From a virus (Duplodnaviria; Heunggongvirae; Uroviricota; Caudoviricetes), in IMG/VR virus record IMGVR_UViG_2671180430_000004: DNA of 7,337 bases, one strand, 5' to 3'. A program made the position numbers and the translations under genes. The notes beneath the pieces were generated by a model, which was not told where the DNA came from, ran no database searches, and worked only from the letters and a program-made list of their open reading frames with translations. Below, piece after piece: positions 955-7,270 of this stretch. Position 1 is the first letter of the stretch, and the number at the start of each line of letters is the position of its first letter.

Positions 955-1110
955 TTACTTCCTGGATTCGTAGTCTACGAAGACAGCGACCTCCGTCTGG
1001 CCGGTTCGGATTCGTACCTCACAGAGGTCTTTCCTCGTTACCAGTGCCGTCACTATGACGGTTAAACAGATGACGATCAGGGCGATTAACATCGCCTTTT
1101 GCTGCTTCAT
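955..1110 (-). CDS. hokD: Hok/Gef family type I toxin, 51 aa, closest in my memory to HokD/RelF
   Basis: From the ATG at 1110-1108 the product is MKQQKAMLIALIVICLTVIVTALVTRKDLCEVRIRTGQTEVAVFVDYESRK, matching recalled HokD/RelF except for the last residues. AAGGAG lies 9 nt upstream. Stop TAA at 957-955. The track ORF 955..1167 is an in-frame TTG extension into the leader. Confidence 0.85.
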   Translation of the reverse strand: MKQQKAMLIALIVICLTVIVTALVTRKDLCEVRIRTGQTEVAVFVDYESRK

Positions 1111-1286
1111 AGCCTGCTTCTCCTTGCCTTTCGGCATGTAAGAGGCTAACCTACATGTGCAAAGCATGAAATTGGCCTCAGATTAATGTTAAGCGTCTTG
1201 CCGGACGCGTAATGTTAACTGGGGCTTTTCTCTATCTGCCTTTTGGTGTTCATGCCTGAAGCAGATAGCCTCAAGCACCCGCAGTC

Positions 1287-1337: not shown

Positions 1338-2024
1338 TCACTCCTTCTCTTCTTTACCGTAGTGGAGTTGACCAATTTTGATAAGAGGGCGTCCCTGAGA
1401 TTTGCGGTGTAGATTGGTATCGCGCAGAGAATACACACAGCCACAATATTCCTGCTGATAGAATTTTTCGCGCTTGCTGATTTCAATCATACGGGACGAG
1501 CCGCCCTGCTTGCGCCAGTTATAATCCCAGTACACCATGCCCGGATAATGCGCGACGGCTCGCCGCCCACAGTCGTTAACCTGCTGCATATTTTTCCAGC
1601 GTGAAATGCCCAGTGAACTGCTGATCACACTGAAACCATTTTCAGCGGCGTACAGCGCTGTCCGCTCAAAACGCATGTCAAAACACATGGTGCAACGGAT
1701 CCCTCGTTCGGGCTCCCATTCCATTCCTTTGGCTCGTTCAAACCAGTTGTCTGTGTCGTAATCAGCATCAATAAACGGCACGCCGTGTTGTTCAGCAAAG
1801 CGAATATTCTCATCCTTACGAATTAAATACTCTTTCTGAGGATGAATGTTCGGGTTGTAGAAAAAGATGGTGTAGTCGATTCCCGAGGCCTGAAGCGCCT
1901 CCATCACCTCACCGGAACATGGAGCACAGCAAGAGTGCAGTAGTAGTTTGTTTGCCCCGTTTGGGAGCTCCAATTTGGGCCGTTTGAAATCAGCAACTGT
2001 CATAAATATGTTTATTGGGGTCAT
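1338..2024 (-). CDS. queH: QueH-like protein (DUF208, epoxyqueuosine reductase family)
   Basis: 228-aa ORF with N-terminal [19 protein letters not shown], a central CTMC and a C-terminal YCGC, which I recall as the conserved cysteine pattern of QueH/DUF208. ATG at 2024 (alternative ATG at 2003); neither has a clear Shine-Dalgarno. Stop TGA at 1340-1338. Confidence 0.6.
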
Positions 2025-2510: not shown

Positions 2511-2512
2511 TT
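2172..2512. repeat. direct repeat copy A, about 341 bp
   Basis: About 94-95% identical by eye to 3097..3437 with no indels, roughly 18 substitutions and a 9-bp divergent patch near the 3' end. Confidence 0.85.
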
Positions 2513-2882
2513 AAATTGACCCAATCAGATATCCAGCGTCCTCCGCCGGAAATTGAGCAATAAGCTCACCTGTTCGTTCAGCGAGCTCGCGTGCATCACA
2601 TGGAATGTCTTCTATGTAAACAGTGTGCGGTACTGCCCTCATTTTAATGCTGCTTTTTTGCTTTTTTGCAAGGGTATCCCAATATGCAGCTACGATGCTG
2701 AAGCAGTATGAGCGGGCATGCATCAACCTTGACTGCCCGGTTTTGTAATTGCCCGCATAACCTTTGGCCATGGCTTTACAAGTTTGATATCTTTCCAGAT
2801 TAGAAAACTCATTATCTGTAAAAAAATCAAAATGTTGCACATTCATAATGTAAAATCCTAATGTATCAAACATGCGGGCCAT
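2511..2882 (-). CDS. hypothetical protein, 123 aa, cargo ORF between the repeat copies
   Basis: ATG at 2882-2880 giving MARMFDTLGFYIMNVQHF... Stop TAA at 2513-2511. No obvious Shine-Dalgarno at the first ATG; an alternative ATG (MNVQ, about 2846) has AGGA upstream. The N-terminal third is encoded by markedly AT-rich DNA. No family recognised. Confidence 0.5.
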   Translation of the reverse strand: MARMFDTLGFYIMNVQHFDFFTDNEFSNLERYQTCKAMAKGYAGNYKTGQSRLMHARSYCFSIVAAYWDTLAKKQKSSIKMRAVPHTVYIEDIPCDARELAERTGELIAQFPAEDAGYLIGSI

Positions 2883-3096
2883 AACATCTCATGGTGGCGC
2901 ATAGCAAACTGGCCCGAAGAATATCACGCACCAAGTCGATCTCATAACCCGTTATGACAATAAATCTTTGTAGCTGAACTCACTTGGTGATTTGTCAATC
3001 ATTCCTGGCCTCCAGTTCGTCCTGAATCTCTTTATCGAGTTCACCGTATTTGTTAGTCCTCATCACTCACGACTTGACTTCCAGAAATAACCTTGA

Positions 3097-3437
3097 TTAT
3101 TCGGGGCTATATTTTGTCACCCTGCGTATCCGCGCTTTCGCATTACGCTCAATCTGGATTAGCTTTTCTATATTTTTTCGCCTTTCCCGCTCCTCCTGGC
3201 GCAAGAGCCTTACATCATCTGCCAGTCTGGTTTCTCTTTTCGCCACAGAGAGCATCCAGTCAAATGGCTCCACAACTGCACCGCAAATTTTACAGCGGAC
3301 CTGACGCTCTTTTTCGTCAACCCGGACAGAAGCGTGATGGCAATATGGTCTTTCCGATGGCTCATAAAGAAAATTAACCTGATTACGAGGGTTATCCTCT
3401 TTTACCGGAAATAAAACAATATTGCTTAACTCATCTT
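3097..3437. repeat. direct repeat copy B, about 341 bp
   Basis: Homologous to 2172..2512; this copy carries the intact gene. Confidence 0.85.
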
Positions 3438-3453
3438 CTGGTTTTATTTCCAT
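3097..3453 (-). CDS. small Cys/His zinc-ribbon-like protein, 118 aa
   Basis: ATG at 3453-3451 preceded by AAGGAGAGGAG; the track start is an upstream GTG at 3510. Stop TAA at 3099-3097. Motif C-H-H...C-K-I-C-G. Differences from the paralogous copy are about 13 synonymous to 4 nonsynonymous in this frame, supporting minus-strand coding. Confidence 0.7.
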   Translation of the reverse strand: MEIKPEDELSNIVLFPVKEDNPRNQVNFLYEPSERPYCHHASVRVDEKERQVRCKICGAVVEPFDWMLSVAKRETRLADDVRLLRQEERERRKNIEKLIQIERNAKARIRRVTKYSPE

Positions 3454-3510
3454 GCTCCTCTCCTTTGATGCGAATGCCAGCGGTAATTGAAGCCTGATAG
3501 CTAATTTCAC

Positions 3511-3933
3511 TCACAGTACCGCCTCCTGAAAATCACCCTGATAGAAAGCCGGTACACGCTGCATAACTTCACTCTTCCGGCACTCGCGACAGATTATGTT
3601 CTGATGTCTGTCGTAGCGGCGTATTTCTCCGTCCGGTAATGACCAGATAAGGTCCGGATCAACCACAGATGGTTTCTTCAGCTTTGCCCTCGAGAGTTTT
3701 TTGCGGGCGTTTTGCCAGTCCTTACGAGCCTGTTCAGACGGGAATAACCCGTAGCCAGAGTTGTATACATCCCCACTGGCAACCAGCTCTCTGGCGAGAA
3801 CGCTTATTAAATATCTTGTCGCCCCGGTTTTAGCTTCCAGTTGTCGTAACGTCTCGCGCCCACTCTGGCGTACGAGTTCAACAACCTGCCCCTTAATTTT
3901 TTCCCGCTCTTCCTGTGTAAATACTTTTGCCAT
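3511..3933 (-). CDS. Ren-like protein (tentative), 140 aa
   Basis: ATG at 3933-3931 (MAKVFTQ...); the track start is a TTG at 3948. Stop TGA at 3513-3511. The C-terminal ICRECRKSEVMQRV resembles the C-terminus of lambda Ren as I recall it (FKECRQSAAMKRV), and the gene sits after the P-analog as ren does after P. Identity is tentative. Confidence 0.55.
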   Translation of the reverse strand: MAKVFTQEEREKIKGQVVELVRQSGRETLRQLEAKTGATRYLISVLARELVASGDVYNSGYGLFPSEQARKDWQNARKKLSRAKLKKPSVVDPDLIWSLPDGEIRRYDRHQNIICRECRKSEVMQRVPAFYQGDFQEAVL

Positions 3934-3948
3934 AAGCGCCCCCGGCAA

Positions 3949-4674
3949 TCACTTTTCCGACACAATACGACCGGAGGAATCGACAATCTGTCGAACAATA
4001 TCCCGGTGCTTGTTCAGCTCCCGCAACGCGGCGCAGACACGCTCCCACTTCTGGACATGACTTTTCGCCCGACGCAGTTCGCGGTTTGCCATATGCAGCG
4101 ATGGTAAAACCAGGTCATCCGCTTGCGTTTCGGTGAACGATGGCAACGACTGCACAATGTCCGCCACAGTTTCTGTTTTAATTTCTTCCTGTGTTGCAGC
4201 TTCCTGTACCGGTAACGCAACACCTGCTGGCTGAGGAAAGACTTTACCATCCGTTTCCGCTATGGATGCGGCTTTCGGCTCTGCCGGTAAATCAGCGCCC
4301 GGTATGCAGTACCGAAATTTACCGCCCTGATTCACGCGAATCAGACGCCCTTTGCTGATTGCCATGGCCAGCGATGAATTCGCCCGGCGGGAGGTAATCC
4401 CGAACATCAGTGCCAGCTCATCCGCCGTTTGTGGGCCATGTTGTTCAATCGCCTCAGTCAGCATTTGCGCTGTCACTTTCGGTACCGGTGACACTGGTTC
4501 ACTTTCACCAGCCTGAATCAGCCACCACATCGAACCCTTGTTATCCGCTTCACCACGGCGCTTCAGTTTCCACAGTTCGTTGACCGCATCTTCACGGCTG
4601 ATTCCAAGGCGGGACGCCACCACATGTGAAGAGGCTCTTTTCAGTGCTTTCAGTGCGTCAAATACAGTTTCCAT
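3949..4674 (-). CDS. hypothetical protein with two tandem winged-helix-like domains, 241 aa
   Basis: ATG at 4674-4672 preceded by GGAGG with a 7-nt spacer; the track start is a TTG at 4692. Stop TGA at 3951-3949. Two HTH-like segments ([19 protein letters not shown] and [24 protein letters not shown]) separated from a basic C-terminal region. Confidence 0.7.
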
Positions 4675-4695
4675 TAAAACATCCTCCAACAAAAA

Positions 4696-5442
4696 TTACT
4701 TCACAACTCCCGGAAAGCTGACATTTGAACGCCAGCTATCCCAGTTAAACGTCACCCACCGACAACCGTTCATGGTCATGCGGTCCATAATCCTCTCACC
4801 AAGAAGCGTGCTCATTGCGGCATGATTCAGGTTTGTTAACATCCCGACACTGCACAGTGATGCTGTCCGGCGATCAATTATCTGGTGCAATACCACCTGC
4901 TCGTTTTTCGTCTCCCGCTGAATGCCTATTTCATCCAGGACCAGCAAATCAACCCCGCAAAGCTCCTGTAAAAATTTTTCACCGGATTTGCCGTTGTCGT
5001 AGCTGTCATGCAACACGCTCATGACATCAGACTCGGTGACGATAATCACGCTGCGCCCCTTCGCCATCAGCCGGTTACCCATCGCCGCTGCAAGGTGATT
5101 TTTCCCGGTGCCGGTTTTACCGCTGAACACAAAATTCGTGCACCCGGTCATCAGTTCGTCAGCTATGGATTTGGCCTGGCTCAGCGCGTATTTTTGCCCG
5201 TCGTTCTGCACCTGATAATTCGCAAACGAGCATTTGCTGTGCAGAGGCTGGATGCCCGAACGATTCAGGATTTTTTCCACCCGCAACTGGCGATTCTGGC
5301 GGTTAATCTCCTCGCTGCGTTTTCGTCCTTCAGCAAGTTGCCATTCCCGCCACTCCTCCACCGTCCGGTACGGTGGAACCGCCCCCTGTGGTGCAAGTCT
5401 GTGAATACGTTCAAGAACCCCGGCTGCCGCAATGTTTTTCAT
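4696..5442 (-). CDS. DnaC-like AAA+ helicase loader (phage P analog, Rac YdaV-like)
   Basis: 248 aa. Walker A FSGKTGTGKNHLAAA with the DnaC-type GKN, Walker B LLVLDEIG. ATG at 5442-5440 lies 6 nt after the stop of the upstream initiator gene. Stop TAA at 4698-4696. Confidence 0.85.
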   Translation of the reverse strand: MKNIAAAGVLERIHRLAPQGAVPPYRTVEEWREWQLAEGRKRSEEINRQNRQLRVEKILNRSGIQPLHSKCSFANYQVQNDGQKYALSQAKSIADELMTGCTNFVFSGKTGTGKNHLAAAMGNRLMAKGRSVIIVTESDVMSVLHDSYDNGKSGEKFLQELCGVDLLVLDEIGIQRETKNEQVVLHQIIDRRTASLCSVGMLTNLNHAAMSTLLGERIMDRMTMNGCRWVTFNWDSWRSNVSFPGVVK

Positions 5443-5448
5443 GCCACA

Positions 5449-6513
5449 TCACCCCCTGAATCCCGGCGGAATTTCGGTATCCGGTTCAGAAATATGATTC
5501 ACACAACGCTGGTTGTTCGTGCCGCTTACCGGGAGCAACCAGGGGTTTTCAAAATTCCGGTCCGGCCCAAAAAACGTCGTCGCTCGCTGAACAAATTCCG
5601 TTCCCGCTTTCCCGGTCGCCGCCAGGTATCTCGCGTAACGCCTCACACCATCCAGCATGGTCTCTGGTGGCACCCCCTCGCGCAATCTGGCCTTCCAGGC
5701 ACTGAATGCGGATTTCTTCGGGTTTGCCCCGGCACGCAACGGGTATTCCCGCCAGACCTGTTCGAACACATCCGGATAATCCACTCGTCCCACAGGCTGC
5801 CCGGTGTTTTCCGGGGCTACCCGATCGGCTTCCCGCTGAATGGCGGAATCGGCTTCAGGCTGCTGCAGTTGGAGTGATTGCTCCGGCCTTGCGGTCATCA
5901 CCTGCTGCACAGCGCCCGAATCGGCTTTCAGCGCATACGCTGAATCGGCTTCCGGTGTCGAGCCTGCTGGCTGACCAGGATTGACGGTCTGAACATCCCC
6001 TGCCTGGTTCGTGGCGTTTTTTACGCCATGGACCATAGTGTTTTGATCTTCTTTATCTGTATCTTTATCTGTATCTGTCGTGACTCGTCGTGACATGTGC
6101 GTGACATTTCGTGACGCGCCGTGACAATCGCCATTTTGTTCCCGCTTTCTTTCCCTCTCTCGCTGCGCCCTCTTGCGCTCTGCAGGAGATTTTGCGGTTT
6201 GCGAAATATTGCCGTTGTCCTCTTTAAGCACCTGGCGTTTTTCCCATCCAGTGATTAAATCACCATCAAGTACCCGCCCCTGCATCGTCTGCAAAATTGA
6301 ATCAATTACCTCTTCTGTCACGTCGAGCGCACTTGCCAAATCTTCTGTCGTGACATCAATGTGACCTCGCGTGACATTTCGTGACGCGCTCACCAGGAGG
6401 TGGATATACACTGCCATCACTGTTGCAATTGGCTGCCCTGACACCCTGGCAATTGTTCGCCACTTAGGGTCATTTGGCATGTCATGCCATAATCTGAGCC
6501 AGGCGTTAGCCAT
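5449..6513 (-). CDS. phage replication initiation protein (O-like replisome organiser)
   Basis: ATG at 6513-6511; the track start is a GTG at 6519. The N-terminal domain (WLRLWHDMPNDPKWRTIARVSGQ...) resembles phage replisome-organiser/DnaD-like N-domains, followed by a charged low-complexity linker and a conserved C-terminal domain. It lies directly upstream of the DnaC-like gene and contains iteron arrays. Confidence 0.8.
   Translation of the reverse strand: MANAWLRLWHDMPNDPKWRTIARVSGQPIATVMAVYIHLLVSASRNVTRGHIDVTTEDLASALDVTEEVIDSILQTMQGRVLDGDLITGWEKRQVLKEDNGNISQTAKSPAERKRAQRERERKREQNGDCHGASRNVTHMSRRVTTDTDKDTDKEDQNTMVHGVKNATNQAGDVQTVNPGQPAGSTPEADSAYALKADSGAVQQVMTARPEQSLQLQQPEADSAIQREADRVAPENTGQPVGRVDYPDVFEQVWREYPLRAGANPKKSAFSAWKARLREGVPPETMLDGVRRYARYLAATGKAGTEFVQRATTFFGPDRNFENPWLLPVSGTNNQRCVNHISEPDTEIPPGFRG
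6035..6125. repeat. putative origin core: AT-rich tract plus five phased CGTGAC iterons
   Basis: GTGAC at 6080, 6090, 6101, 6111 and 6121 (spacing 10, 11, 10, 10 bp), immediately 3' of the AT-rich tract ATCTTCTTTATCTGTATCTTTATCTGTATCTGT (about 6046-6078). Lies in the linker-coding part of the initiator gene. Confidence 0.55.
6317..6389. repeat. second iteron array: four phased GTGAC plus one inverted copy
   Basis: GTGAC at 6350, 6361, 6371 and 6381 (spacing 11, 10, 10 bp) and GTCACG at 6317-6322. The 21-bp block GCGTGACATTTCGTGACGCGC at 6369-6389 is identical to 6099-6119. Confidence 0.55.
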
Positions 6514-6584
6514 ACTCACCTCTTCTGATACCGAATCTTTTTACTCACGAGTTGCCGGGAGCGATTCGATATGGCTATTGTCAG

Positions 6585-7010
6585 TCAATGTACTGCCACA
6601 GCATTTCCTGCCGGGCCACCACGGTTCATCTGATTGAAACCGGCGATTGCCACTGCGACAAAATCATCAGCGTCTCTCACCAGTCGTTCATGCGTCTCCA
6701 CCAGTTCCCGAAAATAAGCTGAACTGTGGCTGCGCATTCGAGCCACCAGCGGAGGTGGCATTGCCCTTTCGATCGCAGGTAACAACGCCTGAATTTTTTC
6801 AACAGCGTCAGGGGTGTCTTTATCCAGCCAACGGAAAATCTTTTGGGTGTTGAGATAAAGCGTGTTGTGCTTGCTGTCGTTATGCAGAACCGGAAACGTC
6901 ATTCCCAGTTCGAAATAAACCCTGGTTATTTCAGCTGCCGGAACTTTTTCACCGTCCGGATGCGCCCAGGCTTTCATCGCCATGCGGATGTGTTCATGCT
7001 TGATTTTCAT
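6585..7010 (-). CDS. YdaT-family protein (CII-like regulator)
   Basis: 141 aa starting MKIKHEHI and ending AVH, matching my recollection of Rac YdaT in length and termini. The ATG overlaps the stop of the upstream gene as ATGA (7010-7007). Confidence 0.65.
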   Translation of the reverse strand: MKIKHEHIRMAMKAWAHPDGEKVPAAEITRVYFELGMTFPVLHNDSKHNTLYLNTQKIFRWLDKDTPDAVEKIQALLPAIERAMPPPLVARMRSHSSAYFRELVETHERLVRDADDFVAVAIAGFNQMNRGGPAGNAVAVH

Positions 7011-7270
7011 GAATCAACCCCCGCCGATGGTTGTGTGTTAGCCTGAAACTCAGCAGGCAAGCCGTCAGTTGGGTTGGGGTAGGTTTTACTGTCAATCTCA
7101 TGTGGGGTCACCACCCATCCCGTTGCTTCACACCAACGTAATATTTTTTCTCCTGTAAGTTTTGCACGCCCCGTTATAACGTGGCTGACCATCCCTTGGG
7201 ATGCGCCAACAATCTCAGCAAATGAACTCTGGGTTATATGAAAATGATGCAAATATTCTCCAAGATTCAT
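7007..7270 (-). CDS. Cro-like HTH regulator (YdaS family)
   Basis: ATG at 7270-7268 preceded by AGGG; the track start is a TTG at 7297. HTH segment QSSFAEIVGASQGMVSHVITGRAKLTGEKILRW. First gene after an AT-rich promoter region at the window edge. Confidence 0.65.
   Translation of the reverse strand: MNLGEYLHHFHITQSSFAEIVGASQGMVSHVITGRAKLTGEKILRWCEATGWVVTPHEIDSKTYPNPTDGLPAEFQANTQPSAGVDS

Follow-up and report, generated by a model that had tools for sequence, protein, structure and literature searches.

The two genes lying directly downstream of the DnaC-like helicase loader gene in the window (the whole stretch of viral DNA that was analysed, 7,337 nucleotides) belong to two separate families. 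Judged from sequence comparison, the 140-aa protein is a genuine member of the Ren family, and the 241-aa protein, being assigned to the separate family DUF1627/phrog_630, is hence most likely no paralog of Ren. Across related loci the DUF1627 gene tracks the helicase loader gene of either family, DnaC-like or lambda-P-like, which cannot be said of the Ren homolog. The two are distinct accessory genes within the replication operon of a lambdoid prophage that is Rac-like and apparently of Shigella sonnei origin. The identity of the two genes is held with high confidence and the mode of action of their products is put forward tentatively; identity and action taken together form the best explanation, which is considered reasonably probable.

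The gene pair is ordinary, had been catalogued before and turns up frequently in prophages of E. coli and Shigella; the window brings no new kind of element. The gain lies in telling the true Ren homolog apart from its neighbour and in showing that this neighbour tracks the loader gene across two loader families. DUF977, to which the Ren homolog belongs, and DUF1627 are both domains of unknown function found in a substantial fraction of the genomes of E. coli and Shigella, and lambda ren has been a phenotype without a mechanism since 1980.

The gene pair in the replication operon

The coordinates of the pair and of the gene preceding it are as follows.

4696..5442, minus strand: DnaC-like helicase loader gene, 248 aa (IstB_IS21, phrog_50), context, precedes the pair
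3949..4674, minus strand: 241-aa gene, DUF1627/YdaW family (phrog_630), ATG start at 4674, stop codon included
3511..3933, minus strand: 140-aa gene, long-form Ren homolog (DUF977, phrog_142), ATG start, stop codon included

The earlier note had described two consecutive genes right after a DnaC-like gene, both occupying the position just downstream of the analog of lambda P, and the open reading frames bear this out. The loader gene was recognised by Pfam IstB_IS21 (E 3.1e-19) and by phrog_50 'DnaC-like helicase loader' (E 2.4e-79). Its stop is separated by 21 nt from the ATG of the 241-aa gene, which has GGAGGA 7 nt on its 5' side, and 15 nt separate the stop of the 241-aa gene from the start of the 140-aa gene. 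The genes of the operon follow one another as cro-like, ydaT/cII-like, O-like initiator, DnaC-like loader, 241-aa gene and 140-aa gene; neither a promoter-like site nor a minus-strand terminator-like site was found within positions 2900-5500. Clusters of CGTGAC repeats lie within the initiator gene at 6079-6125 and 6349-6385. The exact sequences of both proteins are on record as Shigella proteins, each on at least 1000 contigs. The median dN/dS among relatives was 0.31 for the 241-aa gene and 0.13 for the 140-aa gene, and purifying selection acts on the families of both. A chance origin of the two open reading frames was ruled out by the family matches together with dN/dS.

Family assignment and domain architecture

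The 140-aa protein and lambda Ren (96 aa, encoded by the gene after P) share PHROG 142, 'Ren-like exclusion protein', with full-length matches for both. The 140-aa protein reached E 2e-46 with residues 1-139 spanning positions 1-115 of the 116-position profile, and lambda Ren reached E 1.6e-41 with residues 1-95 on positions 11-110. The label 'exclusion protein' is loose, since lambda Ren guards against exclusion and does not cause it. Pfam DUF977 was reached by the 140-aa protein (E 2.2e-30, 105.9 bits, cut-off 22.1; residues 1-136 spanning all 134 model positions) but not by lambda Ren. The features of the 140-aa protein are listed below.

3742..3915, minus strand: winged-helix domain, residues 7-64 (AlphaFold2, Foldseek)
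3664..3735, minus strand: basic helix …ARKDWQNARKKLSRAKLKK…, residues 67-90 (AlphaFold2 helix 67-83)
3535..3606, minus strand: Ren C-terminal motif, residues 110-133 (BLASTP, hhalign)
3550..3552, minus strand: Pro128 codon CCG in the Ren motif (Leu in relatives)

A C-terminal motif resembling that of lambda Ren had been pointed out in the earlier note, and the comparison of NIICRECRKSEVMQRVPAFY in the 140-aa protein with NLVFKECRQSAAMKRVLAVY in lambda Ren confirmed it with 10 of 20 positions identical (BLASTP E 1e-5). The shared motif reads N-x-[IV]-x-[KR]-E-C-R-x-S-x-x-M-x-R-[VI]-L-A-x-Y, and the ending …MKRVLAFYRGNFQ is common to DUF977 proteins and some lambda-type Ren proteins. The hhalign comparison of the 140-aa family with Ren aligned the motif at 95.6% probability (E 1.2e-8); between these shallow alignments the C-terminal motif alone was recovered and the winged helix was not. 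The winged helix of the 140-aa protein was predicted by AlphaFold2 with pLDDT above 90 (helices 7-24, 29-36 and 40-53, strands 57-59 and 62-64). Foldseek paired it with the DNA-binding domain of AraR (TM 0.65, rmsd 2.5 A, 64 columns), with weaker matches to GntR, MarR and CadC.

The 140-aa protein and lambda Ren are alike in their N-terminal winged helix and C-terminal motif, and both genes belong to the rightward early operon, where they lie just downstream of those for replication. The 140-aa protein is 44 residues longer, with an N-terminal extension of about 10 residues and an inserted stretch of about 35, and the identity in aligned columns is only about 30%. The basic helix (residues 67-90, pI 11.2) lies within this insertion and corresponds to a gap in all the lambda-type Ren sequences of the alignment. 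While lambda ren adjoins P directly, here a DUF1627 gene is interposed after the loader. Phage records contain proteins under the name LygF or 'Ren-like exclusion protein' that are 89-95% identical to the 140-aa protein, and no substantial difference was seen from LygF/DUF977 of lambdoid phages and of the Sdf region of Salmonella Enteritidis. 'LygF' is a name only.

The 241-aa protein matched Pfam DUF1627 with E 5.9e-93 (309.2 bits, cut-off 28.1) and phrog_630 with E 1.7e-121 over residues 1-237. Alignment of 34 diverse members, down to 19% identity, revealed a family architecture of two winged helices, a variable linker, an (I/L)PxF(T) motif and a basic C-terminal helix, located in this protein as follows.

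4519..4674, minus strand: first winged-helix domain, residues 1-52 (AlphaFold2)
4300..4479, minus strand: second winged-helix domain, residues 66-125 (AlphaFold2, profile matches)
4102..4299, minus strand: acidic, proline-rich, variable linker, residues 126-191 (predicted disordered)
3952..4101, minus strand: basic C-terminal helix, residues 192-241 (AlphaFold2 helix 193-240)

The two winged-helix segments that the earlier note had read in this protein were reproduced by the AlphaFold2 model. The first consists of helices 4-11, 16-23 and 27-40 (pLDDT about 74-83) and begins with METVxDALKA, the most conserved part of the family in the DUF1627 alignment; it gave weak matches to phrog_633 and phrog_1687, both of which are also matched by lambda Ren. 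The second consists of helices 69-79, 84-91 and 95-107 with a hairpin at 112-123 (strands 112-116 and 119-123; pLDDT 84-89) and gave profile matches to AspA, MarR, ArsR and Z-alpha at E 0.003-0.02. The linker showed pLDDT below 50 over residues 130-191 and a pI of 4.05 over residues 126-185; its length and sequence differ across the family, and the conserved (I/L)PxF(T) motif stands at its end. In the C-terminal helix R201 is invariant and the pattern E(I/L)RRxK…L…LR…L.KH is conserved across the 34 members; this region is also found as the separate PHROGs 29124 and 1888.

The nearest described relatives of the 241-aa protein are the YdaW proteins. With YdaW from phage Rac of strain 442/2 it shares 80% identity, and Rac ydaW occupies the same position after the DnaC-like ydaV; in the Rac phage record ydaV is followed by ydaW (DUF1627) and then by lygF, an order that matches the window. 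The truncated YdaW of K-12 (b1361) is 57% identical over residues 1-139, which include both winged helices, but is without the linker end and the C-terminal helix. When overexpressed, this truncated protein was among the prophage-gene blockers of the retron-Sen2 toxin RcaT, and to our knowledge this screen result is the only experiment on either family.

The structure searches gave matches at the level of the fold. Sequence searches of the PDB with both proteins returned nothing meaningful, and a profile of diverse DUF1627 members reached generic winged helices alone (E 0.003 or worse). Foldseek against PDB and BFVD likewise returned only generic winged-helix folds, with best E 8.8e-4 for the 241-aa model and 0.036 or worse for the 140-aa model. 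Among the best matches of the 241-aa model were ScpB, ESCRT-II EAP30, AlkZ/YcaQ and DIP2311, which have two consecutive winged helices as this protein does. The likeness stays at the fold level (E 1e-3 to 2e-2, TM 0.2-0.3 over the whole model), and these proteins have no sequence kinship to the 241-aa protein and are without its acidic linker and C-terminal helix. Foldseek did not pick out lambda Ren, so that likeness to Ren is beyond what the fold search can discriminate. The homolog searches yielded near-identical sequences alone among the best 120 listed, and hence the AlphaFold2 alignments were shallow and the models moderate (pLDDT 63.5 and 77).

Linkage with the helicase loader and proposed role

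The gene neighbourhoods were compared in synteny samples made up mostly of closely related E. coli prophages, so that the following counts are not independent events. The next gene downstream of the DnaC-like gene was DUF1627 in 71 of 73 related IMG/VR loci, at 62-100% identity to the 241-aa protein. The gene upstream of DUF1627 was DnaC-like in 39 loci, of the lambda-P family in 29 and other in 1. When the loci were anchored on DUF977, loader and DUF1627 occurred together in 35 and both were absent in 30; DUF1627 occurred alone in 2 and the loader alone in none. DUF1627 was also downstream of the loader in all the loci of E. ruysiae, E. albertii, Salmonella and a soil MAG; the species-dereplicated genome scan comprised 5 loci in all.

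The Ren homolog behaved differently. It was found directly after the initiator, in loader-less modules, in 32 of 75 related loci, which argues that it is independent of the phage loader. In none of the 75 loci did the DUF977 gene follow the loader directly, being preceded by DUF1627 or by the initiator, whereas lambda-type ren stood directly after P in 76 of 76 loci. The 241-aa and 140-aa families were adjacent in 12 of 24 phage records, and for each of them roughly half of the phage records carrying it lacked the other. Adjacency may last through simple linkage. The linkage of DUF1627 with the loader is regarded as a modest lead.

As reported through 10.1101/2021.04.19.439022, lambda without ren grows poorly on Rex+ lysogens (Toothman & Herskowitz 1980), suppressors of the loss of ren map in O and P, and RexB interacts with Ren in the yeast two-hybrid assay. 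That paper itself (Thomason et al., 10.1101/2021.04.19.439022) describes interaction of both RexA and RexB with Ren by BACTH. Both winged-helix proteins of the pair are basic, and both may be pictured as small binding proteins that associate with the machinery initiating phage replication. If lambda Ren is taken as the model, the Ren homolog would probably contact the initiator complex and/or Rex-type exclusion proteins, and these contacts may keep phage replication from triggering abortive infection. For either gene an anti-exclusion role would follow from lambda genetics alone.

The DUF1627 protein probably acts together with the helicase loader encoded by the phage, since a locus has its gene exactly when it has a loader gene, whichever the loader family. 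In a more far-reaching and somewhat unlikely form of this proposal, DUF1627 would be an unrecognised obligate partner of loaders from two unrelated families, DnaC-like AAA+ and lambda-P-like. As a third component of the initiator-loader module it might then tame the toxicity of the loader, deliver DnaB to the origin, or shield the loader-DnaB complex from the sensors of abortive infection. It would also be the functional stand-in for Ren in Rac-like phages, with DUF977, the sequence homolog of Ren, being loader-independent. If DUF1627 does bind the loader or DnaB, the textbook replication module would gain a new component, and such binding could explain why the suppressors of ren loss are located in O and P.

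Other explanations of the gene pair

An unlikely alternative is that both proteins are ordinary winged-helix transcription factors acting on phage or host promoters, apart from replication or exclusion. Their nearest folds are the DNA-binding domains of MarR, GntR, ArsR and AraR, the winged-helix domains of both are basic (pI 9.2-10), and K-12 YdaW is listed as a predicted E. coli transcription factor of unknown function (PMC9308461). However, the transcription-factor families of Pfam gave sub-threshold matches alone, TrmB, HTH_Crp_2 and AbiEi_4 scoring 14-16 bits against cut-offs of 25-27, and NCBIfam and PADLOC gave no family for either protein. An effector-binding or canonical dimerisation domain is absent from both. 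The fixed place of the genes in the replication module, the co-variation of DUF1627 with the loader, and the phenotype and suppressors of lambda Ren, which indicate replication and Rex and not transcription (10.1101/2021.04.19.439022), all argue against this alternative.

It is quite improbable that the genes are relics in a decaying prophage, with the Ren homolog functionally impaired. In its favour, Pro128 lies in the predicted helix of the signature motif where lambda Ren and 115 of 120 DUF977 cluster representatives have Leu; among the Ren-type sequences whose motif could be located, 57 have L and 1 has P at the equivalent position. Pro at this conserved Leu could impair the 140-aa copy; the Pro128 variant is the form on record for Shigella. 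The neighbourhood is damaged as well. It contains 123 aa matching the N-terminal part of a type II methyltransferase model with about 600 positions, and this fragment is flanked by a direct repeat of 300 nt in which the 3' end of the zinc-ribbon gene is duplicated. Against this, both open reading frames are intact and full length, the upstream replication genes are intact, and purifying selection is seen across the two families. A single change that has become fixed in a clonal pathogen is also poor evidence about function.

The earlier note had taken the two genes as paralogous Ren-like genes that could form an expanded anti-exclusion module. The alignments to Ren and to DUF families that it suggested upheld kinship to Ren for the 140-aa protein (phrog_142, DUF977) and gave a weak one-domain likeness for the 241-aa protein (DUF1627). 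BLASTP gave no alignment of the 241-aa protein with lambda Ren or with the 140-aa protein, and its C-terminal region, an unrelated helix, was unaligned to Ren/DUF977 in both BLASTP and hhalign, the Ren C-terminal motif being absent. Residues 71-120 matched phrog_142 at E 1.9e-4 with no stretch passing by itself, and hhalign of the 241-aa family gave E 0.0018 (probability 15%) against the Ren alignment and E 9.3e-5 (59%) against the Ren and DUF977 alignment. The resemblance is weak, confined to the second winged helix and at winged-helix level. The two genes are most likely not Ren paralogs, since the 241-aa protein has a separate family, no Ren motif and this weak one-domain resemblance to Ren.

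A joint anti-Rex or anti-abortive-infection module of Ren paralogs is decidedly improbable: the winged helices common to both proteins, the weak likeness of the second winged helix to that of the Ren family, the adjacency of the genes in half of the phage records and the RcaT result speak for it, but the Pfam and PHROG families are separate, winged-helix likeness is unspecific and common to MarR, ArsR and GntR proteins, DUF1627 presence follows the loader and not the Ren homolog, half of the records with either gene lack its partner, and annotations of the same arrangement exist in complete E. coli genomes, so that the pair is no special expansion. The two families were also found as neighbours, in reverse order, in a divergent soil-MAG locus, where a 109-aa Ren-like gene (phrog_142 E 3.4e-11) lies beside DUF1627, an arrangement that favours the paralog module.

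Layout of the window and the gene pair

The ORFs of the window were analysed and all the substantial ones were found on the minus strand, where they make up the early-right region of a lambdoid prophage. The features are as follows:

7297-7007, minus strand: Cro-like HTH gene
7010-6585, minus strand: YdaT/cII-position gene
6519-5449, minus strand: O-like replication initiator (phrog_3729, E 3e-250)
5442-4696, minus strand: DnaC-like helicase loader (IstB_IS21, E 3e-19; phrog_50, E 2e-79)
4674-3949, minus strand: 241-aa ORF (DUF1627, phrog_630)
3933-3511, minus strand: 140-aa ORF (DUF977, phrog_142)
3510-3097, minus strand: zinc-ribbon gene (two CxxC pairs; phrog_1621, E 1.8e-54; weak TFIIB zinc-ribbon match)
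Beyond the zinc-ribbon gene, minus strand: methyltransferase fragment, QueH, hok/sok, DUF1367

An earlier note had placed two consecutive winged-helix/Ren-like genes at 3511-4674 after the DnaC-like gene and proposed a paralogous anti-exclusion module; these coordinates were exact for the 241-aa and 140-aa ORFs (the pair). The ATG of the 241-aa ORF at 4674 lies 21 nt past the loader stop codon with GGAGGA 7 nt ahead of it, the gap from its stop to the 140-aa start is 15 nt, and the 140-aa stop codon abuts the next ORF. Scanning of 2900-5500 revealed neither a sigma-70-like promoter nor a minus-strand hairpin resembling a terminator, so the pair and the replication genes are read as one transcription unit. 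Chance ORFs were excluded for both genes, as the median dN/dS among related loci (0.31 for the 241-aa and 0.13 for the 140-aa family) indicated expressed, constrained genes. The pair is ordinary and already catalogued: both proteins are in Pfam and PHROGs, and the exact sequences are annotated, with Shigella records, mostly of S. sonnei, on 1000 or more contigs for each protein. Among complete E. coli genomes, the best match is 92.5% identical across the pair and carries the annotations "DUF1627 domain-containing protein" and "DUF977 family protein". Almost nothing was found in the literature on DUF977 and DUF1627.

Relation of the two proteins to lambda Ren

The lambda ren reference was taken from J02459. 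BLASTP aligned residues 112-131 of the 140-aa protein (NIICRECRKSEVMQRVPAFY) with Ren residues 73-92 (NLVFKECRQSAAMKRVLAVY) at 10/20 identical positions (E 1e-5), and profile-profile comparison of the DUF977 and Ren alignments over the C-terminal segment gave 95.6% probability (E 1.2e-8), bearing out the Ren-like C-terminal motif noticed earlier. The C-terminal end …MKRVLAFYRGNFQ is shared exactly by some lambda-type Ren proteins and DUF977 proteins. Full-length matches to PHROG 142 ("Ren-like exclusion protein") were obtained for both the 140-aa protein (E 2e-46) and lambda Ren (E 1.6e-41). The 140-aa protein scored 106 bits against Pfam DUF977 (cut-off 22.1), and lambda Ren reached no Pfam family. 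In the joint alignment the 140-aa protein differs from lambda Ren as a long form: its N-terminus is longer by about 10 residues, and about 35 more are inserted between winged helix and motif. In its AlphaFold2 model (mean pLDDT 77), residues 7-64 form a confidently predicted winged helix and residues 67-83 a basic helix; after a disordered stretch come two short helices bearing the Ren motif. Foldseek returned only generic winged-helix DNA-binding domains for this model, and the BFVD fold search did not single out Ren. The 140-aa protein is thus a Ren homolog, named LygF or "Ren-like exclusion protein" in phage records; the Ren-like label for DUF977/LygF proteins pre-exists in PHROGs and RefSeq phage records.

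Residue 128 of this protein is Pro (CCG, 3552-3550, minus strand), a single CTG-to-CCG change inside the predicted helix (AlphaFold2) of the signature Ren C-terminal motif. Leu occupies the position in 115 of 120 family representatives, in lambda Ren and in the other Ren-type sequences found with the motif; the Pro128 variant is the standard allele in the Shigella records.

The 241-aa protein belongs to a distinct family, that of Rac YdaW (Pfam DUF1627, 309 bits; phrog_630, E 1.7e-121). K-12 YdaW is a truncated copy spanning both winged helices at 57% identity. The AlphaFold2 model (mean pLDDT 63.5, domains confident) agreed with the earlier note on two winged-helix segments: a first three-helix domain at residues 4-40 and a complete second one at 69-123 (pLDDT 84-89), followed by disorder at 130-191 and a long helix at 193-240. 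The tandem winged-helix proteins DIP2311, ScpB, ESCRT-II and AlkZ/YcaQ were among its best fold matches. A whole-library HMMER search gave only 159 cluster representatives at E <= 0.001. Alignment of 34 full-length members revealed a constant architecture down to 19% identity and a conserved C-terminal helix, E(I/L)RRxK…LR…L.KH.

BLASTP found no match between the 241-aa protein and Ren, and the Ren motif is absent from it. The phrog_142 hit was weak (E 1.9e-4, residues 71-120), and hhalign with the diverse DUF1627 alignment gave weak signals, in the winged helix only, against Ren plus DUF977 (E 9.3e-5, probability 59%) and Ren alone (E 0.0018, probability 15%). The same domain is about equally weakly like AspA, MarR, ArsR and Z-alpha. 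The likeness to Ren appears to be no more than a shared, very widespread fold, and for these reasons "Ren-like" is justified for the 140-aa protein only. The observation of the earlier note is therefore confirmed, while its interpretation is partly supported and half right.

Linkage of DUF1627 with the helicase loader

Among GenBank phage records, 24 carry a DUF1627 protein and 24 a Ren homolog. The two genes are adjacent in 12 records, which favours the proposed joint module, but 12 have DUF1627 without the Ren homolog (11 PPompW records and one Actinobacillus phage record) and 12 the reverse; in vB_EcoS-813R8, lacking loader and DUF1627, the initiator is followed directly by lygF. The two are often neighbours, yet separable.

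IMG/VR loci were anchored on each gene and neighbours were classified by BLASTP. Upstream of DUF1627 the gene was DnaC-like in 39 loci, lambda-P-family in 29 (26 of them initially scored "other" and later identified as PF06992) and other in 1; the Ren homolog was downstream in only 25/77. Upstream of the Ren homolog stood DUF1627 (43), the initiator (32) and never a loader. Where at least 3 kb upstream was available, 35 of these loci had loader and DUF1627, 30 neither, 2 DUF1627 alone and none the loader alone (nominal Fisher p 5e-17, not a true probability since the loci are related). With the DnaC-like gene as anchor (96-100% identity), DUF1627 came next in 71/73 loci at 62 to 100% identity to the window protein, which indicates that adjacency outlasted allele exchange. 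Lambda-type ren directly followed P in 76/76 loci, all nearly identical to lambda.

The species-dereplicated genome set gave only five matching loci. The gene order was DnaC-like, DUF1627 in E. ruysiae; P-like, DUF1627, DUF977, QueH, hok in E. albertii; and P-like, DUF1627 in Salmonella. Soil MAG JAGTSE010000010.1 carries, after a DnaC-like gene, a short 109-aa Ren-like gene (3663-3992 of the locus; phrog_142, E 3.4e-11) and then DUF1627, an order opposite to that of the window. The fifth matched only the C-terminal helix, in unrelated context. DUF1627 thus appears to track a loader of either family, unlike the Ren homolog; given the narrow phylogenetic sampling, this co-occurrence counts as a lead, short of a result. 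It is the only element that was not found stated elsewhere.

About 250 nt past DUF1627 in the E. ruysiae locus, a 689-aa protein (5004-7073 of the locus) with a P-loop NTPase-like N-terminus stands in the Ren homolog's place; this slot may here hold a moron of the defence type.

Proposed roles and other features of the window

Neither this analysis nor the accessible literature gives a biochemical activity for either protein. For lambda Ren, Thomason et al (bioRxiv 10.1101/2021.04.19.439022) describe terminal overlaps and co-translation of lambda O, P and ren, and bacterial two-hybrid binding of RexA and RexB to O and Ren but not P; they suspect a replication role. They also summarise a yeast two-hybrid RexB-Ren interaction and earlier genetics (Toothman and Herskowitz 1980), in which ren- heteroimmune phage grew poorly on Rex+ lysogens and suppressors lay in O and P. 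By homology, the 140-aa protein most likely has the same role as lambda Ren: a small winged-helix adaptor, it would act at the replication-initiation complex and prevent replication of the phage from setting off Rex-type abortive infection.

The linkage pattern suggests that the 241-aa protein has a function tied to the loader that the phage encodes. Its charge distribution, with winged helices that are basic (pI about 10), an acidic linker and a C-terminal helix that is again basic, would fit a DNA- or protein-binding adaptor. The sole experimental hint comes from overexpression of prophage genes, where K-12 ydaW was one of those that blocked RcaT, the toxin of retron-Sen2 (Bobonis et al, bioRxiv 10.1101/2020.06.22.160242); this is compatible with an anti-defence effect and could be indirect.

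The window contains 9 copies of CGTGAC where 2.9 are expected, a count that no shuffle out of 200 attained. Eight of them lie on one strand in two clusters (6079-6125 and 6349-6385, spacing about 10-11 nt) within the O-like initiator gene (5449-6519), with an "SRNVT" protein repeat at both; they look like candidate origin iterons placed inside the coding sequence of the initiator, an arrangement shared with lambda. The zinc-ribbon gene (3097-3510), which other genomes start at an internal ATG giving a 118-aa protein, comes next after the Ren homolog in 20/77 related loci. A 300-nt direct repeat (2163-2462 and 3088-3387, 92% identical, 925 nt apart) is a second copy of its 3' end and the sequence beyond, leaving a 58-aa partial copy at 2348-2172, and looks like a recombination scar. 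It brackets the 123-aa ORF at 2511-2882 (minus strand), which had no Pfam or PHROG match and matches only the first 116 of 604 positions of a type II DNA methyltransferase model (PADLOC MTase_II, E 5.8e-36), and is probably what remains of a phage methyltransferase after truncation. At 1338-2024 (minus strand), the prophage early region includes a full-length homolog of QueH, an epoxyqueuosine reductase (Pfam E 1.9e-65), which appears to be a tRNA-modification moron, as QueH also follows the Ren homolog in the E. albertii prophage. The hok/sok type I toxin-antitoxin locus occupies 955-1280 (minus strand), where sok RNA (1105-1280; Rfam 117 bits, gathering score 59) overlaps the start of the Hok-like 70-aa ORF (955-1167).
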